Assembly: GCA_001775095.1 (NCBI GenBank)
Contig: MFCA01000022.1
Location: 2,162-66,161 of the forward strand
DNA length: 64,000 nt
Direction of reading: 5' to 3'
Source of the DNA: Candidatus Curtissbacteria bacterium RIFOXYA1_FULL_41_14
GTDB lineage: Bacteria > Patescibacteriota > Microgenomatia > Curtissbacterales > GWA2-41-24
In this document: in pieces, positions 4,185 to 60,028 of the stretch
Layout: each line of letters begins with the position of its first letter
How positions within the stretch are numbered: the first letter of the stretch is position 1
Position numbers and translations under genes: made by a program
The notes under the pieces: generated by a model
Told to the model about the DNA's origin: nothing
The model's database searches: none
Seen by the model: only the letters and a program-made list of their open reading frames with translations

Positions 4185-5246
4185 TTGGTTAAACTTATGA
4201 GGAAGTCTTTGATTGTTTTAGTTATCCTAGTGGTGGTCTCGAGCGCATTTTATTTTTTAAGGCATCGGTCAAATTCAACCTTTACAAGTCCTAATTCCGA
4301 AACTCTCCAACAGAAATCAACGCCTCTTATCAAATACGCCATAGAAGCATTATCTAAAACCAATTTTAATCCCAGTCAAATTTCTCTGGGCGAACTAGTT
4401 AACAGCACGCCCGATTTTACCTCGCGGATATTTTACTTTTATGTTGATCCTTCGATAAACTCAGGACAAGGTAGAAAGGTTAGCGGGCTTATTAATATTC
4501 CCAACAATGGCACAGATTTACCGGTAATTGTGATGTTTCGCGGTTATGTTGATCGGGAAAAGTACCAAACGGGCGTTGGCACTAATCATGCCGGAGAAGT
4601 TTTTGCAAAAAATGGTTTTATTACTTTGGCCCCTGACTTTTTGGGTTATGGGGAATCTGATATGCCTTCTGAAAACCCTATGGAGGAGCGTTTTCAAACC
4701 CATACGACTGCTCTGACTTTGCTTGCGTCGGTTAAAAATTTGAATGCGGCTTTGTCGGAAGCTGGCGTTGCTGCGAGGGCGGATCCTGACAGAATTGCCA
4801 TCTGGGGGCACAGTAATGGAGGCCAAATTGCCCTAACGATTTTGGAAATTACCGGCAAGAGTTATCCCACAGTTCTCTGGGCGCCGGTTTCTAAACCGTT
4901 TCCGTATTCAATCCTTTACTATACTGATGATTTTGATGACCATGGCAGGATGTTGAGAAAAGTCGTTGCCGATTTTGAAAAGGATTATGACTCAGAGGGT
5001 TATTCACTGGCTAGTTATTTTGAAAAGATAAAAGCGCCTGTGCAGTTGCATCAAGGAGGAGCGGACGAAGCAGTTCCCCTGAAATGGTCAGATCAACTTT
5101 ATGAGCAACTTAAAGAACTAGACAGGGATATCCAATACTTTACCTACACCGGCGAAGACCATAATTTTGCCCAAGGCGCCTGGGGACAGGTTGTCAATCG
5201 GAATATTGTGTTTTATCAGAGGCAATTTGGTAGTAATAAAGAGTAA
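4185..5246 (+). CDS. Alpha/beta-hydrolase (S9 peptidase / dienelactone-hydrolase-like), N-terminally anchored. The start may be the ATG at 4197.
   Basis: Nucleophile elbow GHSNGG, a downstream HQGGADEAVP region and an N-terminal TM. Confidence 0.6.
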   Translation: MVKLMRKSLIVLVILVVVSSAFYFLRHRSNSTFTSPNSETLQQKSTPLIKYAIEALSKTNFNPSQISLGELVNSTPDFTSRIFYFYVDPSINSGQGRKVSGLINIPNNGTDLPVIVMFRGYVDREKYQTGVGTNHAGEVFAKNGFITLAPDFLGYGESDMPSENPMEERFQTHTTALTLLASVKNLNAALSEAGVAARADPDRIAIWGHSNGGQIALTILEITGKSYPTVLWAPVSKPFPYSILYYTDDFDDHGRMLRKVVADFEKDYDSEGYSLASYFEKIKAPVQLHQGGADEAVPLKWSDQLYEQLKELDRDIQYFTYTGEDHNFAQGAWGQVVNRNIVFYQRQFGSNKE

Positions 5247-18333: not shown

Positions 18334-18450
18334 TTTGGTACAACGAGGTCGGACCTGGTAAGTGGAATTCGGGAAAGCCCCTCTAAAAAGATCGAAAATT
18401 TCTTAAAAGGTTCTTTCGGTAATGTAGTAAGCGGATTGATATAATGAGTT

Positions 18451-35977: not shown

Positions 35978-36234
35978 TTTAATTTCTAATTTCTAATTTC
36001 TAAATCCTAAACAAATCAAAATGACCAAAATTCAAAACAATTTTAAGAGAAATTTATCTTTTTTGATCATTTGATATTTGAATTTTGAAATTGTTTAGAG
36101 TTTAGAATTTAGAGTTTAGAATTTTTATTAGTCATTAGGTTAATATCAGCATGAGCTTCGCTCATCTGATATATCAGTAAACTTCATTAGATTTTTATAT
36201 TAATTACAATAATTGAAGTTTAGCTGATATTAGG
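35978..36234. repeat. ~260-bp AT-rich intergenic element, copy 1, in reverse orientation and abutting the eamA start
   Basis: RC aligns by eye with 59764-60028. Contains the CTAAACTCTAAATTCTAAAC and TTAGGATTTAGAAATTAGAAATT blocks and a CTGATATATCAG-hairpin-CTGATAT module. Confidence 0.65.
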
Positions 36235-37134
36235 TCAATTTTGTATCGCTTCAATAAGTCGGTCAAGGCCGAAAGAAAAGCCGACAGCAGGAATTTGCCT
36301 TTTAGAAAACATGCCAATTAAGTTATCGTATCTGCCGCCTGAGCCAATGGATAAATTGCCATAAGACGGGATTTTTAGTTCAAAAATCGCTCCTGTGTAA
36401 TAATCAAGACCGCGGGCTAAAAGGGGGTCAAAAATATATTCCCGACTATCGATTCCCCCCTCATCAAGAATTTTAAAAAGTGATTTAAGATTATCAGTCA
36501 GCGGTTTATTTGCCATACTCTGGAGTATGGCAGTTGCTTTCGCTTTTGAAAGCCCCTTTTGCGTTAATTCGTTGACAACTCCTTCTTCGCCGATCTTTTC
36601 CAGTTTATCAAGAGCGATGACGACTTCCTTGTCAACTCCTTCAAAATTTTTGCGGTCGTTAATTTTAATTTGCGAGCTTTTAAGGCCAACTGCTTTGACA
36701 GCTTTAAGTGCGGCGGCGATAATTTTTGCGTCTTCTTCTAAACTGTCTGATCCGACAGTGTCAAAGTCCAGTTGAGTGAATTCGCGATAGCGGCCTTTTT
36801 GGGGATTTTCGCCGCGGAAAACCTGGCCGATTTGATACCGGCGAAAGGGCAGTGGGGGATTATTAGTTGCGACATAACGGGCGACTGGAACGGTCAGATC
36901 GTAGCGCAGAGCCAAGTCTCTGCCGCCGCGATCTTTAAACTCATAGATTAGTCTTTCCTCCTCACCATATTTACCTTTTAGAGTCTCGGCAAATTCGATA
37001 GTTGGTGTTTCGATTGGTGCAAAACCGAACTCTTCCAGTACATCGACGATCTGATTAATAACAGCTCGTCTTTTTTTGGCTAGATCCGGTTTAATATCGC
37101 GGAAGCCTTTTGGTGTCGGCGGGGCTTTTTGCAT
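36235..37134 (-). CDS. hisS: Histidyl-tRNA-synthetase-like catalytic core (class II motifs 1-3) lacking a C-terminal anticodon-binding domain
   Basis: RYDLTVPVARYVA, FRRYQIGQVFRGENPQKGRYREFTQ (motif 2) and GGRYDNLIGMF...AVGFSFGLDRL (motif 3). The ORF ends 5 aa after motif 3. Confidence 0.6.
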   Translation of the reverse strand: MQKAPPTPKGFRDIKPDLAKKRRAVINQIVDVLEEFGFAPIETPTIEFAETLKGKYGEEERLIYEFKDRGGRDLALRYDLTVPVARYVATNNPPLPFRRYQIGQVFRGENPQKGRYREFTQLDFDTVGSDSLEEDAKIIAAALKAVKAVGLKSSQIKINDRKNFEGVDKEVVIALDKLEKIGEEGVVNELTQKGLSKAKATAILQSMANKPLTDNLKSLFKILDEGGIDSREYIFDPLLARGLDYYTGAIFELKIPSYGNLSIGSGGRYDNLIGMFSKRQIPAVGFSFGLDRLIEAIQN

Positions 37135-38134: not shown

Positions 38135-38445
38135 AATTTCTAATTGCCTTAATTACTAAAAACCCTAAACTCTAAATTCTAAACTCCTGCCTGCCGGCAG
38201 GCAGGCTAAACAATTTCAAAATACAAAACTCAAATGATCAAAAAAGAGATAGTCTATTGAAATCCTTATTCTTCGAACAACGTGAGAAGTTTGAGTTCTC
38301 GCTGCGGAGAGTACCGTCCGGTACTCTCCTGCGCTCGAACAATATGTTTATCATCCTGTTTTGAATTTTAGATTTACCTCATTTGGATTTATTTAGGATT
38401 TAGAAATTAGAAATTAGAATTTTACTCTTTAGGTCTTTTAGCTTA
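38135..38445. repeat. AT-rich element copy 2, interrupted by a nested MITE-like copy D (38245-38350) and an extra CCTGCCTGCCGGCAGGCAGG palindrome. Lies between divergent gene starts.
   Basis: Both flanks align with copy 3. The MITE-like copy D (38245-38350) sits between them. Confidence 0.6.
38245..38350. mobile_element. MITE-like palindromic element copy D, nested inside the AT-rich element
   Basis: Reverse complement of copy C. Confidence 0.65.
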
Positions 38446-46433: not shown

Positions 46434-48147
46434 CTTATCCGAAAGAATATATTTCGTTCTAGCGACAATCTTGATTATTGCCGCCGGAATCGGAATCATT
46501 TCGTCGCTTTTCTCCCAACCTTTGATACTAGCCTACATTCTTTCGGGAGCAGTAATCGGTTTCTTGTCCTCCAATTTCGTGGCTATTCCAACTCCAGCAG
46601 AAACATTTGGCTTTTTTTCTCAAATTGGCATTGCCCTTATCCTTTTTATGGTAGGGATCGAACTTTCAATTAGCGAGTTGAAAAATATTGGGAAGCCGGT
46701 TTTTTTAGCAACACTGTTCCATGCTCTGATAATCGGAACGAGTGCATTTATCCTCTCTTTAATTTTTGATTTTGGAATTTTAGCTTCCTTTTATATTGCC
46801 GTGGCCATAATTTTTTCTTCGACTGTGATCGTTATAAAACTTCTCGATCAGCAGAGGGATACAAACTCACTTTACGGCAAAATTACTATTGGTATTTTAC
46901 TTCTGCAGGATTTATTTGCGGTTATTATTTTGATGTTTCTTGCGGGTATTGGTCCTAAGGGAGTGCCTTTTAACTTTCTAAATTTAGTTCTTACCTTTAT
47001 AAAAGGAGGGCTATTGGTAGGAGCAATATGGTTTATTTCAAAGTTCGCCCTAAGGCGGATATTTGCTTATGTTGCTTCAAATTCAGAACTCCTTTTTTTA
47101 TGTACCATGGCTTGGGCCCTAGGTGTTTCCAGTATTTTTAAATTTTCAGGCTTTTCATTCGAGATAGGAGCTTTTTTATCGGGGGTGGCTCTAGCAAATT
47201 TGCCATATCGATATTCTATATCTGCAAGAATCGCACCGATTAGGGATTTTTTCATCATAATCTTTTTTATAGTATTGGGCTTGTCTATTGACTTTGCCGC
47301 TATTAAGAACATGTTTTGGCCGATTGCTGTTTTTTCAGTTTTCGTTTTAACTGTAACCCCGGTAGTGGTTGCTAATTATCTTGGATATTTAGGATTTGGT
47401 AAACGGGTGGCTTTTTTGTCAGGACTGTCACTAGCCCAAGTTTCCGAATTTTCCTTAATTATTGTGGTCGTTGGAGCGAATCTTGGTCATATAAGCGGCG
47501 AAATTGTTTCTTTTATTTCCTCTGTAGCTATTTTCACGATTGCTGCCTCTTCTTATTTGATAATTAACGGCGGCAAAATTTACAGGGTCCTTCGCAGTCG
47601 AATCAAGATTATTGAGAGAAATAAAGTTGCAATCGGAAATATTTCGGAAAAAGATCTGGAAAATCATCTGCTGCTTGTTGGCGCGGAGCAGATGGGTAGT
47701 GATATCTTGGACTATTTAAAAAATAAAGCTAAGGATACAGGGCAAAGTGTTGTAGTGGTTGACTTTAATCCGCAGATTGTCGAAAGTCTGGTAGCCGGTA
47801 ATTTTAATGTAGTTTTTGGAGATATTTCTGATCCGGAAATTTTAGAACAGTTAAATTTGGCTCGCGCAAAGTTAATAATAACGACTGTCCCTGATCTTGT
47901 GGACAACACCAATCTTATAAAGTTCGCAAAAGAAGAAGGCTATACAGGGCCGATTATCTGCGCGTCATACTGGCTTCATGACGCGGTTAAACTGTATGAA
48001 GCGGGAGCTGATTTGGTAGTGGTGCCTGAAGATGTGGGTGGCAAGCATGTTGCCAGAGTTCTTTCAGATCATTGGGATAATTTAAAGGCAATTAAAAAGG
48101 CGAAAAGTAAACGTTTTGAAGAACTAATCTCCCGCAAAATATTTTAA
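46426..48147 (+). CDS. CPA2-family cation:proton antiporter with a C-terminal TrkA-N/RCK NAD-binding domain
   Basis: About 12 TM helices with a Na_H-exchanger-like pattern. C-terminal LLLVGAEQMGSDI Rossmann. Confidence 0.7.
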   Translation: MFDLSERIYFVLATILIIAAGIGIISSLFSQPLILAYILSGAVIGFLSSNFVAIPTPAETFGFFSQIGIALILFMVGIELSISELKNIGKPVFLATLFHALIIGTSAFILSLIFDFGILASFYIAVAIIFSSTVIVIKLLDQQRDTNSLYGKITIGILLLQDLFAVIILMFLAGIGPKGVPFNFLNLVLTFIKGGLLVGAIWFISKFALRRIFAYVASNSELLFLCTMAWALGVSSIFKFSGFSFEIGAFLSGVALANLPYRYSISARIAPIRDFFIIIFFIVLGLSIDFAAIKNMFWPIAVFSVFVLTVTPVVVANYLGYLGFGKRVAFLSGLSLAQVSEFSLIIVVVGANLGHISGEIVSFISSVAIFTIAASSYLIINGGKIYRVLRSRIKIIERNKVAIGNISEKDLENHLLLVGAEQMGSDILDYLKNKAKDTGQSVVVVDFNPQIVESLVAGNFNVVFGDISDPEILEQLNLARAKLIITTVPDLVDNTNLIKFAKEEGYTGPIICASYWLHDAVKLYEAGADLVVVPEDVGGKHVARVLSDHWDNLKAIKKAKSKRFEELISRKIF

Positions 48148-48188
48148 GCCAGTGTGTTAAAATTTAAGAAAAGAGGTGTTTTTGCCAA

Positions 48189-48338
48189 ATGGGTAATTTC
48201 GGAGGATTCTATATCAGCAGGTCGCCTCGGTACAGTCCTTCGACTGCGCTCAGGACTTCATGCCGATGGCGCTTTTCTGATATAAAATTATTGTATTCGC
48301 ACATGGATATTCATAAAAAATATGAAGTAGGAGAGTAA
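48189..48338 (+). CDS. 49-aa upstream stub ORF beginning MGNFGGFYISR. It mimics the N-terminus of the next gene (MGTYGGFYKGE), reads through a repeat element and stops 3 nt before that gene's ATG.
   Basis: Read directly. AAGAGGTG upstream. TAA at 48336-48338. Confidence 0.4.
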   Translation: MGNFGGFYISRSPRYSPSTALRTSCRWRFSDIKLLYSHMDIHKKYEVGE

Positions 48339-48341
48339 CTA

Positions 48342-48479
48342 ATGGGTACTTACGGTGGATTTTATAAAGGGGAGCGTAAGAAACTAAAAAAAGAGGTTTT
48401 GGAAAAAAAGGCTGCAAAAATAAAGCGGATTGCAACAATTCCTCAAGTAGAAATCCTCGGTAAAAAAGGGAAGTAAGTT
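48342..48479 (+). CDS. 45-aa lysine-rich small protein MGTYGGFYKGERKKLKKEVLEKKAAKIKRIATIPQVEILGKKGK
   Basis: Short ORF with AGGAGA 7 nt upstream. Not in the supplied ORF track because it is under 60 aa. Confidence 0.35.
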
Positions 48480-48534
48480 GTCAGATCTTGACTAAATTTC
48501 CAAGGGCAGATTGCTAAGTTGAAGAGAAAGTTCA

Positions 48535-52865: not shown

Positions 52866-52914
52866 AACTTCACAAAAAATTGACTAAATTCTATAATAGG
52901 CGCAAAGGAGTTTT

Positions 52915-53034
52915 ATGAGCGGACATTCGAAGTGGAGCCAAATATTAGCAGGTAGTCTTGGCACGCTTCGTCGTGCCAATGGCGCTCCTCTGATATTTGC
53001 GACCATAAGGAGGATTTCCTATGTCAGGTCATAG
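52915..53034 (+). CDS. 39-aa upstream stub ORF beginning MSGHSKWSQI, identical to the YebC N-terminus but with different synonymous codons. It reads through a repeat element and terminates 14 nt into yebC.
   Basis: Read directly. AAGGAG upstream. Stop TAG at 53032-53034. Confidence 0.45.
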   Translation: MSGHSKWSQILAGSLGTLRRANGAPLIFATIRRISYVRS

Positions 53035-53773
53035 TAAATGGTCGCAAATTAAAAGGCAAAAGGGAGTGGCGGATGTTAAACGCGGCCAGACATTTACCAA
53101 AATGGCTAACGCGATTACGATCGCCACAAGGGAAGGCGGAGGCGGTGATCCGGCAAGTAATTTTAAATTGAGGTTAGCTATTGATCAGGCCCACGCTGCC
53201 AATATGCCCAAAGAGAATATCCAGAGGGCGATTGACAGAGGTCTAGGCAAAGGTGGAGGAGCAGGGCAACTCGAATCTGTCGTTTATGAGGGCTACGGAC
53301 CTGGTAAAGTTGCATTAGTTATTGAAGCAACAACTGACAATAAAAATCGTACTACATCCGAAGTCAAAAATCTTATTGAAAGACTTGACGGTTCTTTTGT
53401 TTCTCCGGGGGCTATTTCCTGGATGTTTGCAGACCAGGGACAAATTACTGTCTCAAAAGAGGGTAAGAGTCTGGATGTGGTCTTTGACCTGGCAGCCGAG
53501 GCCGGAGCTGAGGATGTTGAAGAGGCCGGGGACGAGATTCTTGTCTATACAAAGCCACATGAAGTCGAAAGCGTAAAGAGTCAACTAGTTGAAAAAGGTT
53601 TGGTTGTCAAAAACGCTGAAATTTCTAAAGTTCCCACAACGACAGTTCAAGTAACCGACGCCGATATTGCCAGAAAAATTTTAAACCTGATGGAAAAATT
53701 AGAAGAACTGGACGATATCCAAAAAGTCTGGAGCAATTTCGATATTCCGGATGAGATTTTAGAAAAAGTTTGA
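53021..53773 (+). CDS. yebC: YebC/PmpR-family transcriptional regulator / translation factor
   Basis: MSGHSKWSQIKRQKGVADVKRGQTFTK is a canonical YebC N-terminus. Full length 250 aa. Confidence 0.85.
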   Translation: MSGHSKWSQIKRQKGVADVKRGQTFTKMANAITIATREGGGGDPASNFKLRLAIDQAHAANMPKENIQRAIDRGLGKGGGAGQLESVVYEGYGPGKVALVIEATTDNKNRTTSEVKNLIERLDGSFVSPGAISWMFADQGQITVSKEGKSLDVVFDLAAEAGAEDVEEAGDEILVYTKPHEVESVKSQLVEKGLVVKNAEISKVPTTTVQVTDADIARKILNLMEKLEELDDIQKVWSNFDIPDEILEKV

Positions 53774-59022: not shown

Positions 59023-59763
59023 GTGATGCCAAAGCCGTACCGGACTTCAATAACCACCCATGCTGATGGTTCACCTCATGTATACGGTTATGATCTGACA
59101 AAGCTTGCCGGGAATACCTCTTTTGCCAAGGCTATCTACCTTATTCTTAAAGGTCAAATGCCGGATAAGGCGAGCGAGAAGATGTTTGAGGCGATGTTAA
59201 CGATCGCTATCGATCACGGTGTTGAACCTCCATCAGTTGTTGCTGCAAGAAACGTTTCTTCGGGCGGTAGTCCAATTCAGGCGGCGGTTGCGGCCGGGGT
59301 ACTGGCGCTTGGGGAATTTCACGGAGGAGCAATTGAGAAGGCGATGGAAAATTTTAAAAAATATCAGGGTGTTGGGGTTAAGATAATGGTTGATGATTTT
59401 AACAAAAATGGCGAGCGTATTTCCGGTTTCGGCCATCGACTATATGCTGACGATCCCAGAACGCAAAGGCTTTTAGAAATTGCCAAGGAACTTGGTTTTT
59501 TCGGTAAATATGTCAAATTTGCTCTTGAAGTTGAAGCAGAAATTTCCAAAGAGTCAAAAAAATTACCTCTTAATATCGACGGATGTTTTTCAGTACTGCT
59601 CTTGGAAATGGGATTCAATCCCAAGGTCGCCAACGGTATTTTTATAATTGCCAGAACACCGGGGTTGGTGGCTCACGTAGTTGAGGAAACCTTGCGTGAG
59701 AAACCGGCAAGGCGGTTAACCGAAAACGATGTGGAATATGACGGACCAAGACCGAGACGGTAA
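59023..59763 (+). CDS. Truncated citrate-synthase-family protein (citryl-CoA-lyase-like, C-terminal catalytic part only)
   Basis: Conserved citrate-synthase catalytic contexts HGGA, GFGHRLY...DPR and IARTPGLVAHVVEE. It lacks the ~150-aa N-terminal region of full citrate synthases. Confidence 0.65.
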   Translation: MMPKPYRTSITTHADGSPHVYGYDLTKLAGNTSFAKAIYLILKGQMPDKASEKMFEAMLTIAIDHGVEPPSVVAARNVSSGGSPIQAAVAAGVLALGEFHGGAIEKAMENFKKYQGVGVKIMVDDFNKNGERISGFGHRLYADDPRTQRLLEIAKELGFFGKYVKFALEVEAEISKESKKLPLNIDGCFSVLLLEMGFNPKVANGIFIIARTPGLVAHVVEETLREKPARRLTENDVEYDGPRPRR

Positions 59764-60028
59764 ATTGATCTAATATCAGCTAAACTTCAATTATTATAAT
59801 TAATATAAAAATCTAATGAAGTTTACTGATATATCAGATTCGCCGAAGGCGAAGGCTGATATTAACCTAATGACTTAACAAAATCCTAAACTCTAAATTC
59901 TAAACTCTAAACAATATCAAAATTCAAATGTTCCAAAAAATAATTAAACTTAAAATTGTTTTGAATTTTGTATTTTGATTATTTGGATTTATTTAGGATT
60001 TAGGATTTAGAAATTAGAAATTTCAAAT
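59764..60028. repeat. ~260-bp AT-rich intergenic element, copy 3, filling the whole spacer between the citrate-synthase-like gene's stop and the ruvC ATG
   Basis: Aligns with the RC of 35978-36234 and with the flanks of 38135-38445. Confidence 0.65.

Follow-up and report, generated by a model that had tools for sequence, protein, structure and literature searches.

A hairpin repeat of Patescibacteria flanked by duplicated, allele-like ends of its target genes

In a stretch of 64,000 nt from Candidatus Curtissbacteria bacterium RIFOXYA1_FULL_41_14 (GenBank assembly GCA_001775095.1, contig MFCA01000022.1, positions 2,162 to 66,161 of the forward strand; the whole stretch is called the window), a hairpin separates a short open reading frame (ORF) beginning MGNFGGFY from the gene of a small lysine-rich protein beginning MGTYGGFY. 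The short frame, or stub, which the sequence-only reading had described as mimicking the N-terminus of the protein, is instead one copy of a direct duplication of about 80 nt that includes a −10 box, a Shine–Dalgarno sequence (SD) and the ATG. The hairpin belongs to a family of more than 55 copies, TATATCAGCAGGTCGCCTTG-(variable apex)-CAATGGCGCTCCTCTGATAT, in Curtissbacteria and other Patescibacteria. The earlier proposal that the stub is gene-specific and the element shared by unrelated genes is borne out in other genomes, where members of the same family stand beside stubs of different genes at more than 12 additional loci. On balance, we favour a polar, one-ended and homology-assisted insertion of a hairpin resembling REPINs (hairpin-forming pairs of repetitive extragenic palindromes, REPs) or miniature inverted-repeat transposable elements (MITEs), in which a long and variable overlap would keep the target gene intact. 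The small-ORF locus is made up as follows.

48131..48212 (+): duplication copy 1, with the last codons and stop (48145-48147) of a Kef-type transporter gene, the extended −10-like sequence TGTTAAAAT (48155-48163), SD GAGGTG (48173-48178) and the stub ATG at 48189 with 8 codons, the last being TAT (48210-48212)
48189..48338 (+): stub ORF of 49 codons, MGNFGGFY followed by read-through of hairpin and leader to TAA 48336-48338
48210..48283 (+): hairpin repeat element of 74 nt, long-apex subfamily, TATATCAG-C-AGG-T-CGCC-(apex)-GGCG-CT-(C/T)(C/T)T-CTGATAT
48284..48365 (+): duplication copy 2, with the leader 48284-48341, SD AGGAG (48329-48333), the real ATG at 48342 and the first 8 codons
48342..48476 (+): gene of the 44-aa lysine-rich protein, the working gene, starting MGTYGGFY, translation MGTYGGFYKGERKK...

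All coordinates and sequences given earlier for this locus (ATG 48189, MGNFGGFY, TAA 48336-48338, ATG 48342) were verified. The stretches 48131-48212 and 48284-48365 align globally over about 80 nt (z = 4.7; 0 of 500 shuffles), the non-coding leader included, and both adjoin the hairpin directly; the match between stub and gene is not due to chance, as none of 50 shuffled flanks gave 5/7 identical residues. Judged by this alignment, the stub is the upstream copy of a direct duplication flanking the hairpin and not a case of mimicry. The downstream copy, which is continuous with the gene, is the working start, and the stub retains the native promoter and SD, severed by the hairpin. The element is tolerated at codon 8 without killing the gene because the 5' region of the gene is duplicated. 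The stub frame, translated MGNFGGFYISRSPRYSP...YEVGE, crosses the hairpin (TATATCAGCAGGTCGCC...GATGGCGCTTTTCTGATAT, 48210-48283) and then the 58-nt leader, and its TAA sits 3 nt ahead of the real ATG. A possible extended −10 element in the copy-2 leader is built with the hairpin end (TG 48278-79 plus TATAAA 48281-86), and there is a second TAAAAAAT box. A separate guide-like hairpin after the element ('Module 2', X'-TCGCnnnGCTC-X) was considered and rejected; the segment is better described as the start of the duplicated copy plus an AT-rich −10/leader.

The small ORF, which had to be a real gene for the earlier proposal to stand, is a conserved gene by the evidence of its homologues, which form 14 protein clusters of 70-100% identity with 20 of 44 columns invariant; the protein is without a Pfam, NCBIfam or PDB relative. 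It is encoded on 164 contig index blocks, and identical proteins occur on Candidatus Curtissbacteria contigs (Patescibacteria, or candidate phyla radiation, CPR) of metagenome-assembled genomes (MAGs) from many groundwater metagenomes. The local structure is the same in all these MAGs, which excludes an assembly error. We regard chance resemblance, or an assembly chimera at a repeat, as a negligible explanation: the genomes are metagenome-assembled and repeats can mis-join, but contigs of NCBI, JGI and ENA assemblies from numerous samples (164 and 121 index blocks, over 100 independent assemblies) carry the identical structure, which recurs with diverged sequence in other species, and chance is opposed by the shared-block shuffles, the duplication z of 4.7 and the flank permutation (7 of 48 loci) described below.

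A covariance model built from 55 copies scores 48210-48283 at 62.1 bits (E = 4e-20), and the segment folds into a long imperfect hairpin of −34.8 kcal/mol (z = −5.3), with none of 200 shuffles as stable. The left boundary and a further block had been noted as common to this locus and yebC, and indeed the blocks ATATCAGCAGGT and CCRATGGCGCTYYTCTGATAT have exactly two occurrences each in the 64 kb, at 48211/48263 and 52942/52976; the long block of the shared pair was absent from 100 of 100 shuffled sequences. Across the 55 aligned copies, the left arm (TATATCAG-C-AGG-T-CGCC-TTG) and the right arm (CAA-T-GGCG-CT-CCT-CTGATAT) are near-invariant, the terminal inverted repeats TATATCAG / CTGATATA are invariant or nearly so, the unpaired bases and internal bulges are conserved too, and the apex varies. 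The apical stem covaries strongly: 62 cells carry changes on both sides, where shuffles give 14 ± 3 (0 of 500), compensatory changes affect 5 apical pairs, and 96.8% of cells are paired, a share that drops to 52% or less once the partners are slid. A strand-specific G-U excess (21 vs 7) is confounded by the search pattern, which fixes the right arm, and was not used.

The pattern AGCAGG-N15-45-ATGGCGCTNNTCTGATAT was found at 54 loci in the genome collection, compared with an estimated 2 or so expected by chance, and with up to 10 copies per MAG; nearly all loci belong to Curtissbacteria or other Patescibacteria, and one GC-rich locus (L038) looks like a chance match. It had no match among 2.9 million viral contigs, which rules against a phage origin. 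Within the window, the covariance model recovered only the two known main copies plus two mini-hairpins, and it added a few copies in the other loci examined. Searches with Rfam 15 at gathering and permissive thresholds gave only a tRNA at gathering score in the window and nothing credible with E ≤ 10 at 48100-48500, and the element is neither a tRNA nor a tmRNA. Its copies measure 48-75 nt, have no coding capacity and stand not just at gene starts but also at 3' ends, beside tRNAs and between convergent genes, and in either orientation relative to the neighbouring genes. Three of the 55 lie inside a predicted ORF, and the neighbouring genes within 200 nt are head-right in 18 cases, head-left in 14, tail-right in 15 and tail-left in 21. 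Apex subtypes are common to non-orthologous loci of different genomes, and orthologous loci may differ, as in the window and its counterpart L155 in another species. The flanks TAT|ATCAG...CTGAT|AT are compatible with a hidden short AT/TA duplication; those duplications that can be made out are long, their lengths varying from 17 to about 140 nt. The best reading of these sequences is a non-autonomous, mobile palindromic repeat of Patescibacteria that is REPIN/MITE-like.

The relatives of the small-ORF locus retain the stub. The upstream TGnTAAAAT, GAGGTG and ATG are kept in L155 and L152, and the stub peptide is conserved, reading MGNYGELY in L155 and MGVYGGFY in L152. The hairpin apex of L155 differs from that of the window and is 9 nt shorter, and the TAA-CTA-ATG arrangement and the open frame are kept. 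The L152 stub (GCA_964372335.1; positions 1421-1530 correspond to L150 1-130) equals its gene at 24/24 nt with very different leaders, and the insert is a short GC hairpin (CTCGCCGAGAGCGGCGAG) without ATATCAG ends, a combination suggesting that the copies have undergone gene conversion and that the hairpin has been replaced over time. L048 has a simpler form, in which the first ATG coincides with the start of the hairpin. When the window is set against L155, identity is 86% in the copy-2 leader, 78% in the small ORF, 69% in neighbouring coding sequence and 36% in the next intergenic region, and the same high-identity block extends from the hairpin to about +110 of yebC when the window is compared with L070. 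This high identity of leader and gene head could reflect either strong constraint or a recent shared origin of hairpin, leader and gene head.

The second main copy lies in front of yebC, at the following positions.

52869..52944 (+): yebC duplication copy 1, with the native promoter TTCACA-17-TATAAT at 52869-52897 (scan 11/12), SD AAGGAG and the stub ATG at 52915, MSGHSKWSQI
52941..52996 (+): hairpin of the same family with a short apex, covariance-model score 66.2 bits, fold −29.4 kcal/mol (z = −5.1, 0 of 200 shuffles as stable)
52997..53773 (+): yebC duplication copy 2, with a leader carrying SD AAGGAGG and the complete yebC at 53021-53773 (Pfam TACO1_YebC_N and Transcrip_reg)

The yebC stub and gene agree at 10/10 residues over a duplication of about 47 nt and differ at 12 of 30 nt, all synonymous; none of 50 shuffled flanks gave 7/7 identical residues. 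Among 82 yebC loci from many Patescibacteria, a second MSGHSKW is present only in the window, L070 and L150, and all three carry an ATATCAG...CTGATAT hairpin at the same codon and the same stub-hairpin-leader-gene layout. Relatives whose gene order is unchanged (L147, L069, L048, L156) have empty sites, in which yebC is preceded only by TATAAT and 9-12 nt. Another case is L107, where a stub ATGTCAGGTCATTCAAAA (MSGHSK) behind TATAAT stands about 45 nt upstream of yebC and is followed by AGGATTTATAT and the real ATG, with an SD-type leader but no hairpin; this is probably a filled site that lost its hairpin. Insertion of a second gene copy that displaced the remainder of the old one was considered and rejected: tblastn gave no additional fragment of yebC or of the small ORF in the window, and none of the H+-translocating pyrophosphatase (H+-PPase) gene turned up in L019.

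Two observations on yebC stand apart. At empty sites of Curtissbacteria-like relatives (L067-L079, L147, L156), TATAAT lies 9-12 nt before the yebC ATG with no SD, in contrast to the AAGGAGG leader of filled loci, and the empty-site mRNA is probably leaderless or nearly so. Four YebC homologues of 266-284 aa (P0145, P0162, P0163, P0199) carry 16-34 extra residues before MSGHSKW, none of them with a second MSGHSKW, and these extended N-termini may be wrong start calls or other upstream insertions.

It had been proposed that further copies be sought just downstream of start codons. Such copies exist, but duplication also affects the C-terminal ends of genes, halves of tRNAs and the −35 region of one promoter. 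Gene-start stubs accompany family members at dnaK (L018, L055), a cobalamin adenosyltransferase gene (L023), fpg (L043), rplK (L044) and a ferredoxin-like gene (L017), and C-terminal stubs belong to H+-PPase (L019), rpoC (L056), atpD (L042/L051) and another gene (L021). A tRNA 5' end (L014), a tRNA 3' half (L045) and the −35 region of a promoter (L033) make up the non-coding cases, and the GAPDH locus (L059) shows the mirror arrangement. In a permutation test, 7 of 48 loci exceeded the 99th percentile of mismatched flank pairs, with 0.5 expected, and roughly a quarter of the copies have a duplication once the peptide- and tRNA-level cases are added. At 3040-3230 of L045, the element is bordered by a complete tRNA (anticodon loop CTTATAA, minus strand) on one side and, on the other, by the 3'-half stub, whose T-arm is intact with compensatory changes relative to the complete gene (GATGG/CCATC vs GTAGG/CCTAC).

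Over 13 stub/gene pairs, codons differ synonymously in about 65 cases and non-synonymously in 15. For yebC, the three stubs together show 14 synonymous and no non-synonymous changes, including Ser TCN/AGY switches, and the stub peptide is unchanged across the three species; the H+-PPase stub agrees with its gene at 27/27 residues and the stop with 17 synonymous changes; and the rpoC stub has 10 synonymous and 2 non-synonymous changes with Arg and Leu family switches. Inside the duplications, the coding parts and the −35 box are conserved and the other non-coding sequence is nearly unalignable. Since this is the pattern of orthologous regions compared between species, the copies look like two functional alleles and not like a duplicate decaying in place.

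The main rival, and a serious one, is transposition of a MITE with wide staggered cuts, which would produce long, variable target-site duplications; the survivors would be those with restored gene ends, and the copies would diverge later with occasional gene conversion. The geometry fits, given that both copies adjoin the element, long variable repeats are documented for IS1549/IS1634 (PMC2266710), the repeats of L152 (24 nt) and L033 (19 nt) are perfect, and the flanks TAT|ATCAG...CTGAT|AT allow a short AT/TA duplication. However, the divergence is almost purely synonymous with switches of six-fold codon families (for H+-PPase, 0 non-synonymous vs 17 synonymous in 27 codons) and uneven along the repeat, with functional parts conserved and the rest saturated. 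A symmetric mechanism, moreover, predicts no left/right bias, and the loci examined held no parent insertion sequence that shares these ends. We therefore rate target duplication as distinctly the less probable account, if one that deserves to be taken seriously.

A left/right bias is what the loci exhibit. Stubs of the right-hand gene stand on the left of the element at at least 12 loci and the mirror case occurs once (L059), although genes abut both sides about equally; an unbiased scan of gene starts found the stub on the left in 4 of 34 cases vs 0 of 33 on the right. The left junction is always ...(T/A)AT|ATCAG, with AT|A or AT|T at the corresponding place of the complete copy. Small as the counts are, they indicate that the process is directional. 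In addition, a filled (L070) and an empty (L073) yebC locus from the same sample set are about 90% identical over the upstream gene and most of the intergenic region (88.8% to the last stub base; 28/29 nt over the stub), whereas identity falls to 72.7% beyond the stub in yebC and no similarity remains downstream. In this single pair, the change of ancestry, as read from the alignment, coincides with the stub/hairpin junction. At the small-ORF locus, no relative comes closer to the window species than about 64% protein identity for the upstream gene.

Because the copies are allele-like and the stub is almost always on the left, we favour a polar, one-ended event, for which we propose the following hypothetical steps: (i) the hairpin and the DNA to its right enter as one strand from a related genome or a sister molecule; (ii) the right-hand portion, being homologous to the resident gene, pairs with it; (iii) the left end of the hairpin becomes attached to an ...AT|A site slightly deeper in the resident copy, an HUH-type nickase being one possible agent. 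The outcome would be an overlap of 17 to about 140 nt, with the end of the resident gene left behind as a stub. Such a polar, homology-assisted joint would explain why the copies diverge like alleles, why the overlap varies in length, why the arrangement is polar and where the L070/L073 breakpoint lies.

Several points weigh against this proposal. About 70% of the copies have no detectable long duplication, and the polarity count comes partly from cases identified by eye, the unbiased counts being small (about 8:1). The insertion at the small ORF is common to three species that are about 33% diverged and is accordingly old, with stubs carrying 2-3 of 8 non-synonymous codons. The 24/24-nt identity in L152 with differing leaders needs gene conversion or a very close donor, and homologous pairing is inefficient between DNAs 30% diverged. 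The ancestry breakpoint comes from one close pair. Finally, in about 0.7 Mb of sequence no enzyme is linked to the ATATCAG hairpin, which is absent from the flanks of the Y1_Tnp genes (L157, L041, L132) described next.

The chemistry of the proposed joint would suit an enzyme of the HUH type, and candidates of this class are present in the same clade. Genes for Y1_Tnp proteins resembling REP-associated tyrosine transposases (RAYTs) were found in Curtissbacteria relatives (L157 760-1404, minus strand; L041 about 4326-4980, minus strand; L132), with Pfam PF01797 at 43.5 bits, the HUH motif HFH and the Tyr motif RYIHLNP. They are flanked on both sides by a GC-rich palindrome with a GGTCSGACC core (TTAGGGGTCSGACCCCTAA in L157, ACGAGGTCSGACCTCGT in L041). 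The L157 gene lies directly upstream of an empty yebC, and L157 and L041 each have a main hairpin 1-1.7 kb away; the link between HUH enzymes and the hairpin is only circumstantial. GGTCSGACC cores occur in the window at 18347, 40495 and 46100 (3 vs 0.11 expected), the last inside a pseudouridine synthase ORF. A phmmer search for TnpA of IS200/IS605 gave no match with an approximate IS608 query.

Expression of the interrupted genes raises a different question, namely whether the stub has a role. The stub ORF ends 3 nt before the small-ORF ATG (window, L155), 10 nt past the yebC ATG (window, L070) and in an ATGA overlap with dnaK (two species). Transcription from the stub promoter would run through the hairpin, and the junction CTGATAT+AAA (TGATATAAA) also reads as an extended −10 element, TGnTATAAA, so a second start point would be possible. 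Ribosomes translating the stub would open the hairpin and re-initiate at the real ATG, and the frame positions suggest that such translational coupling is kept at the small ORF, yebC and dnaK. It is not universal, as the stub frame stops inside the hairpin (CTC TGA) at five other loci, and one stub starts with ATT.

Taken further, stub, hairpin and leader might form an evolved cis-regulatory device, in which a translated leader ORF opens the hairpin and couples or attenuates the gene and the stub peptide is selected. The stub ORFs that stay open to the real start in three independent genes, in two species each, the copy-2 leader as the best-conserved segment (86%) and the yebC stub peptide unchanged in three species would all fit. 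However, the same hairpin occurs at 3' ends, near tRNAs, between convergent genes and in either orientation; the five stub ORFs ending in the hairpin and the ATT start do not fit; close relatives do without the arrangement; and coupling explains an open frame, not retained amino acids. We consider a regulatory origin unlikely.

Joining at the level of RNA or translation, by a ribosome hop to a matching codon as in T4 gene 60 or by removal of the hairpin and second start as an intron, can be given very little credence. Both small-ORF copies end in the Tyr codon TAT (48210-12, 48363-65), with a strong hairpin after the would-be take-off, but the yebC codons need different tRNAs (ATA vs ATT) and the dnaK codons differ altogether. 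No stop follows the take-off codon at the small ORF or yebC, the real gene is served by an SD and ATG of its own, which all relatives keep, searches against ribozyme and intron families gave no match, and elements at 3' ends and tRNAs cannot work in this way. Bypass and intron models were rejected on the mismatched codons, the SD at the real start and the 3'-end copies.

We return to the polar, homology-assisted insertion and to what it would imply. A more tentative extension, possible but doubtful, is that the hairpin is the handle of an undescribed polar route of gene transfer in Patescibacteria: a nick at its left foot would free a single strand with the hairpin and a gene end, which would pair with the recipient gene, the hairpin end then being joined to AT|A of the displaced strand. 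If this were true, gene heads and tails from other lineages would be pasted in without gene disruption, each copy acting as a gene-specific 'homing cassette' that leaves the resident end as a stub. In CPR bacteria, whose genomes are tiny, mobile elements are held to be scarce. The hairpin family described here occupies the very ends of core genes (dnaK, rpoC, atpD, rplK, yebC and tRNA genes). Allele-like copies would call for either an unusual insertion chemistry or hairpin-marked, homology-assisted transfer, and would offer a handle on core-gene exchange and repair in uncultured bacteria. In practical terms, the stubs are short false ORFs that can cause wrong start calls upstream of real genes, and transcripts or ribosomes coming from the stub side would meet a strong hairpin and a translated upstream frame ahead of the real gene.

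The window also holds smaller relatives of the family.

36143..36172 (+): mini-hairpin with ATATCAG...CTGATAT ends, and a second AT-rich hairpin with the same ends in tandem
59831..59862 (+): mini-hairpin ATATCAGattcgccgaaggcgaaggCTGATAT with the same termini, also found after the main element in L027

At eight loci (L013, L020, L025, L027, L050, L059, L064, L066), a mini-hairpin ATATCAG-(15-25 nt)-CTGATAT directly follows the main hairpin with an ATAT overlap (CTGATATATCAG); either the element may have inserted repeatedly at its own end, or the whole may be a compound element. The two mini-hairpins of the window lie in an inverted-repeat pair of about 260 nt (35981-36241 and 59762-60022, 88-97% complementary; third partial copy at 38154-38423), which consists of AT-rich 'tctaaa/ttagaa' low-complexity repeats and tandem ATATCAG...CTGATAT hairpins and brackets 23.5 kb with both stub loci. 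In L019, tracts of the 'tctaaa' kind likewise come after the stub of H+-PPase.

Among known systems, the family comes closest to REPs and REPINs, short imperfect palindromes present in many copies, with two inverted arms around a spacer and the ability to form hairpins (PMC3116915). It shares with them the many copies per genome and the mainly extragenic position (54 loci, up to 10 per MAG, 3 of 55 in an ORF), the two conserved inverted arms with a variable spacer, and the presence of RAYT-like Y1_Tnp genes in the same clade. In contrast to REPINs, the consensus TATATCAGCAGGTCGCC is without the GTAG tetranucleotide, and the RAYT-like genes (L157, L041, L132) are flanked by other palindromes, although a cognate RAYT may lie elsewhere, the sequence covered being only about 0.7 Mb. 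To our knowledge, no REPINs with long flanking duplications or inside gene ends have been reported. The terminal inverted repeats TATATCAG / CTGATATA are a MITE-like trait. Correia elements of Neisseria and Rickettsia palindromic elements are likewise small, palindromic, non-autonomous repeats that are co-transcribed, have promoter-like ends and are tolerated near or in coding regions; the former make a fixed TA duplication and the latter insert in frame and are translated within the protein, and neither restores a gene by duplicating its end.

Flanking direct repeats of very variable length (8-514 bp), made by a mechanism that is not known, characterise IS1549/IS1634 (PMC2266710). The repeats described here are similarly variable, about 17-140 nt, but those insertion sequences are DDE elements of 1.5-2 kb, compared with a hairpin of 48-75 nt without coding capacity, and their repeats are initially identical, whereas here identity is confined to L152 (24 nt) and L033 (19 nt) and the copies are allele-like elsewhere. 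Islands that target tRNA or tmRNA genes and prophages in gene ends also leave the gene intact with a displaced partial copy across the insert, and the tRNA 3'-half stub of L045 looks exactly so. However, tRNA-targeting islands span kilobases, encode an integrase and use one fixed target, in contrast to an insert of about 60-130 nt with a different target gene for each copy.

Homology-facilitated illegitimate recombination joins one end by homology and the other illegitimately (PMC3240628). By analogy with the sequential displacement of effector genes reported for type VI secretion system loci of Vibrio cholerae (PMC5361080), such joints could perhaps leave remnants of displaced genes. This process predicts one homologous and one non-homologous joint, with foreign DNA on one side; in the single close pair, L070 and L073, identity is 88.8% to the stub end and 72.7% beyond. 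Unlike in that process, the illegitimate joint here always falls at the left foot of the hairpin, ...AT|ATCAG, implying a site-specific activity. Rolling-circle elements (IS91/ISCR, Helitrons) move by a polar HUH mechanism from one end and can carry flanking host DNA, and Helitrons have the ends 5'-TC...CTRR-3' and insert in AT. The ends A|TC...CTGA|T of our element resemble those of Helitrons, a lead only that may follow simply from the palindrome; in contrast to rolling-circle elements, it has no linked Rep or helicase gene and consists of a single hairpin. It differs from integron attC sites in its ends (ATATCAG/CTGATAT vs core sites RYYYAAC...GTTRRRY) and in having housekeeping genes, not cassettes, as neighbours, from the T4 gene 60 bypass in its yebC codons (ATA vs ATT) and in that no stop follows the last shared codon of the stub at either window locus, and from known structured RNAs in that no Rfam 15 family covers the hairpin. 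The combination of a hairpin of about 60 nt, gene-specific overlaps of 17-140 nt and allele-like stubs is matched by no single known system, and the mechanism by which this element inserts is possibly new.

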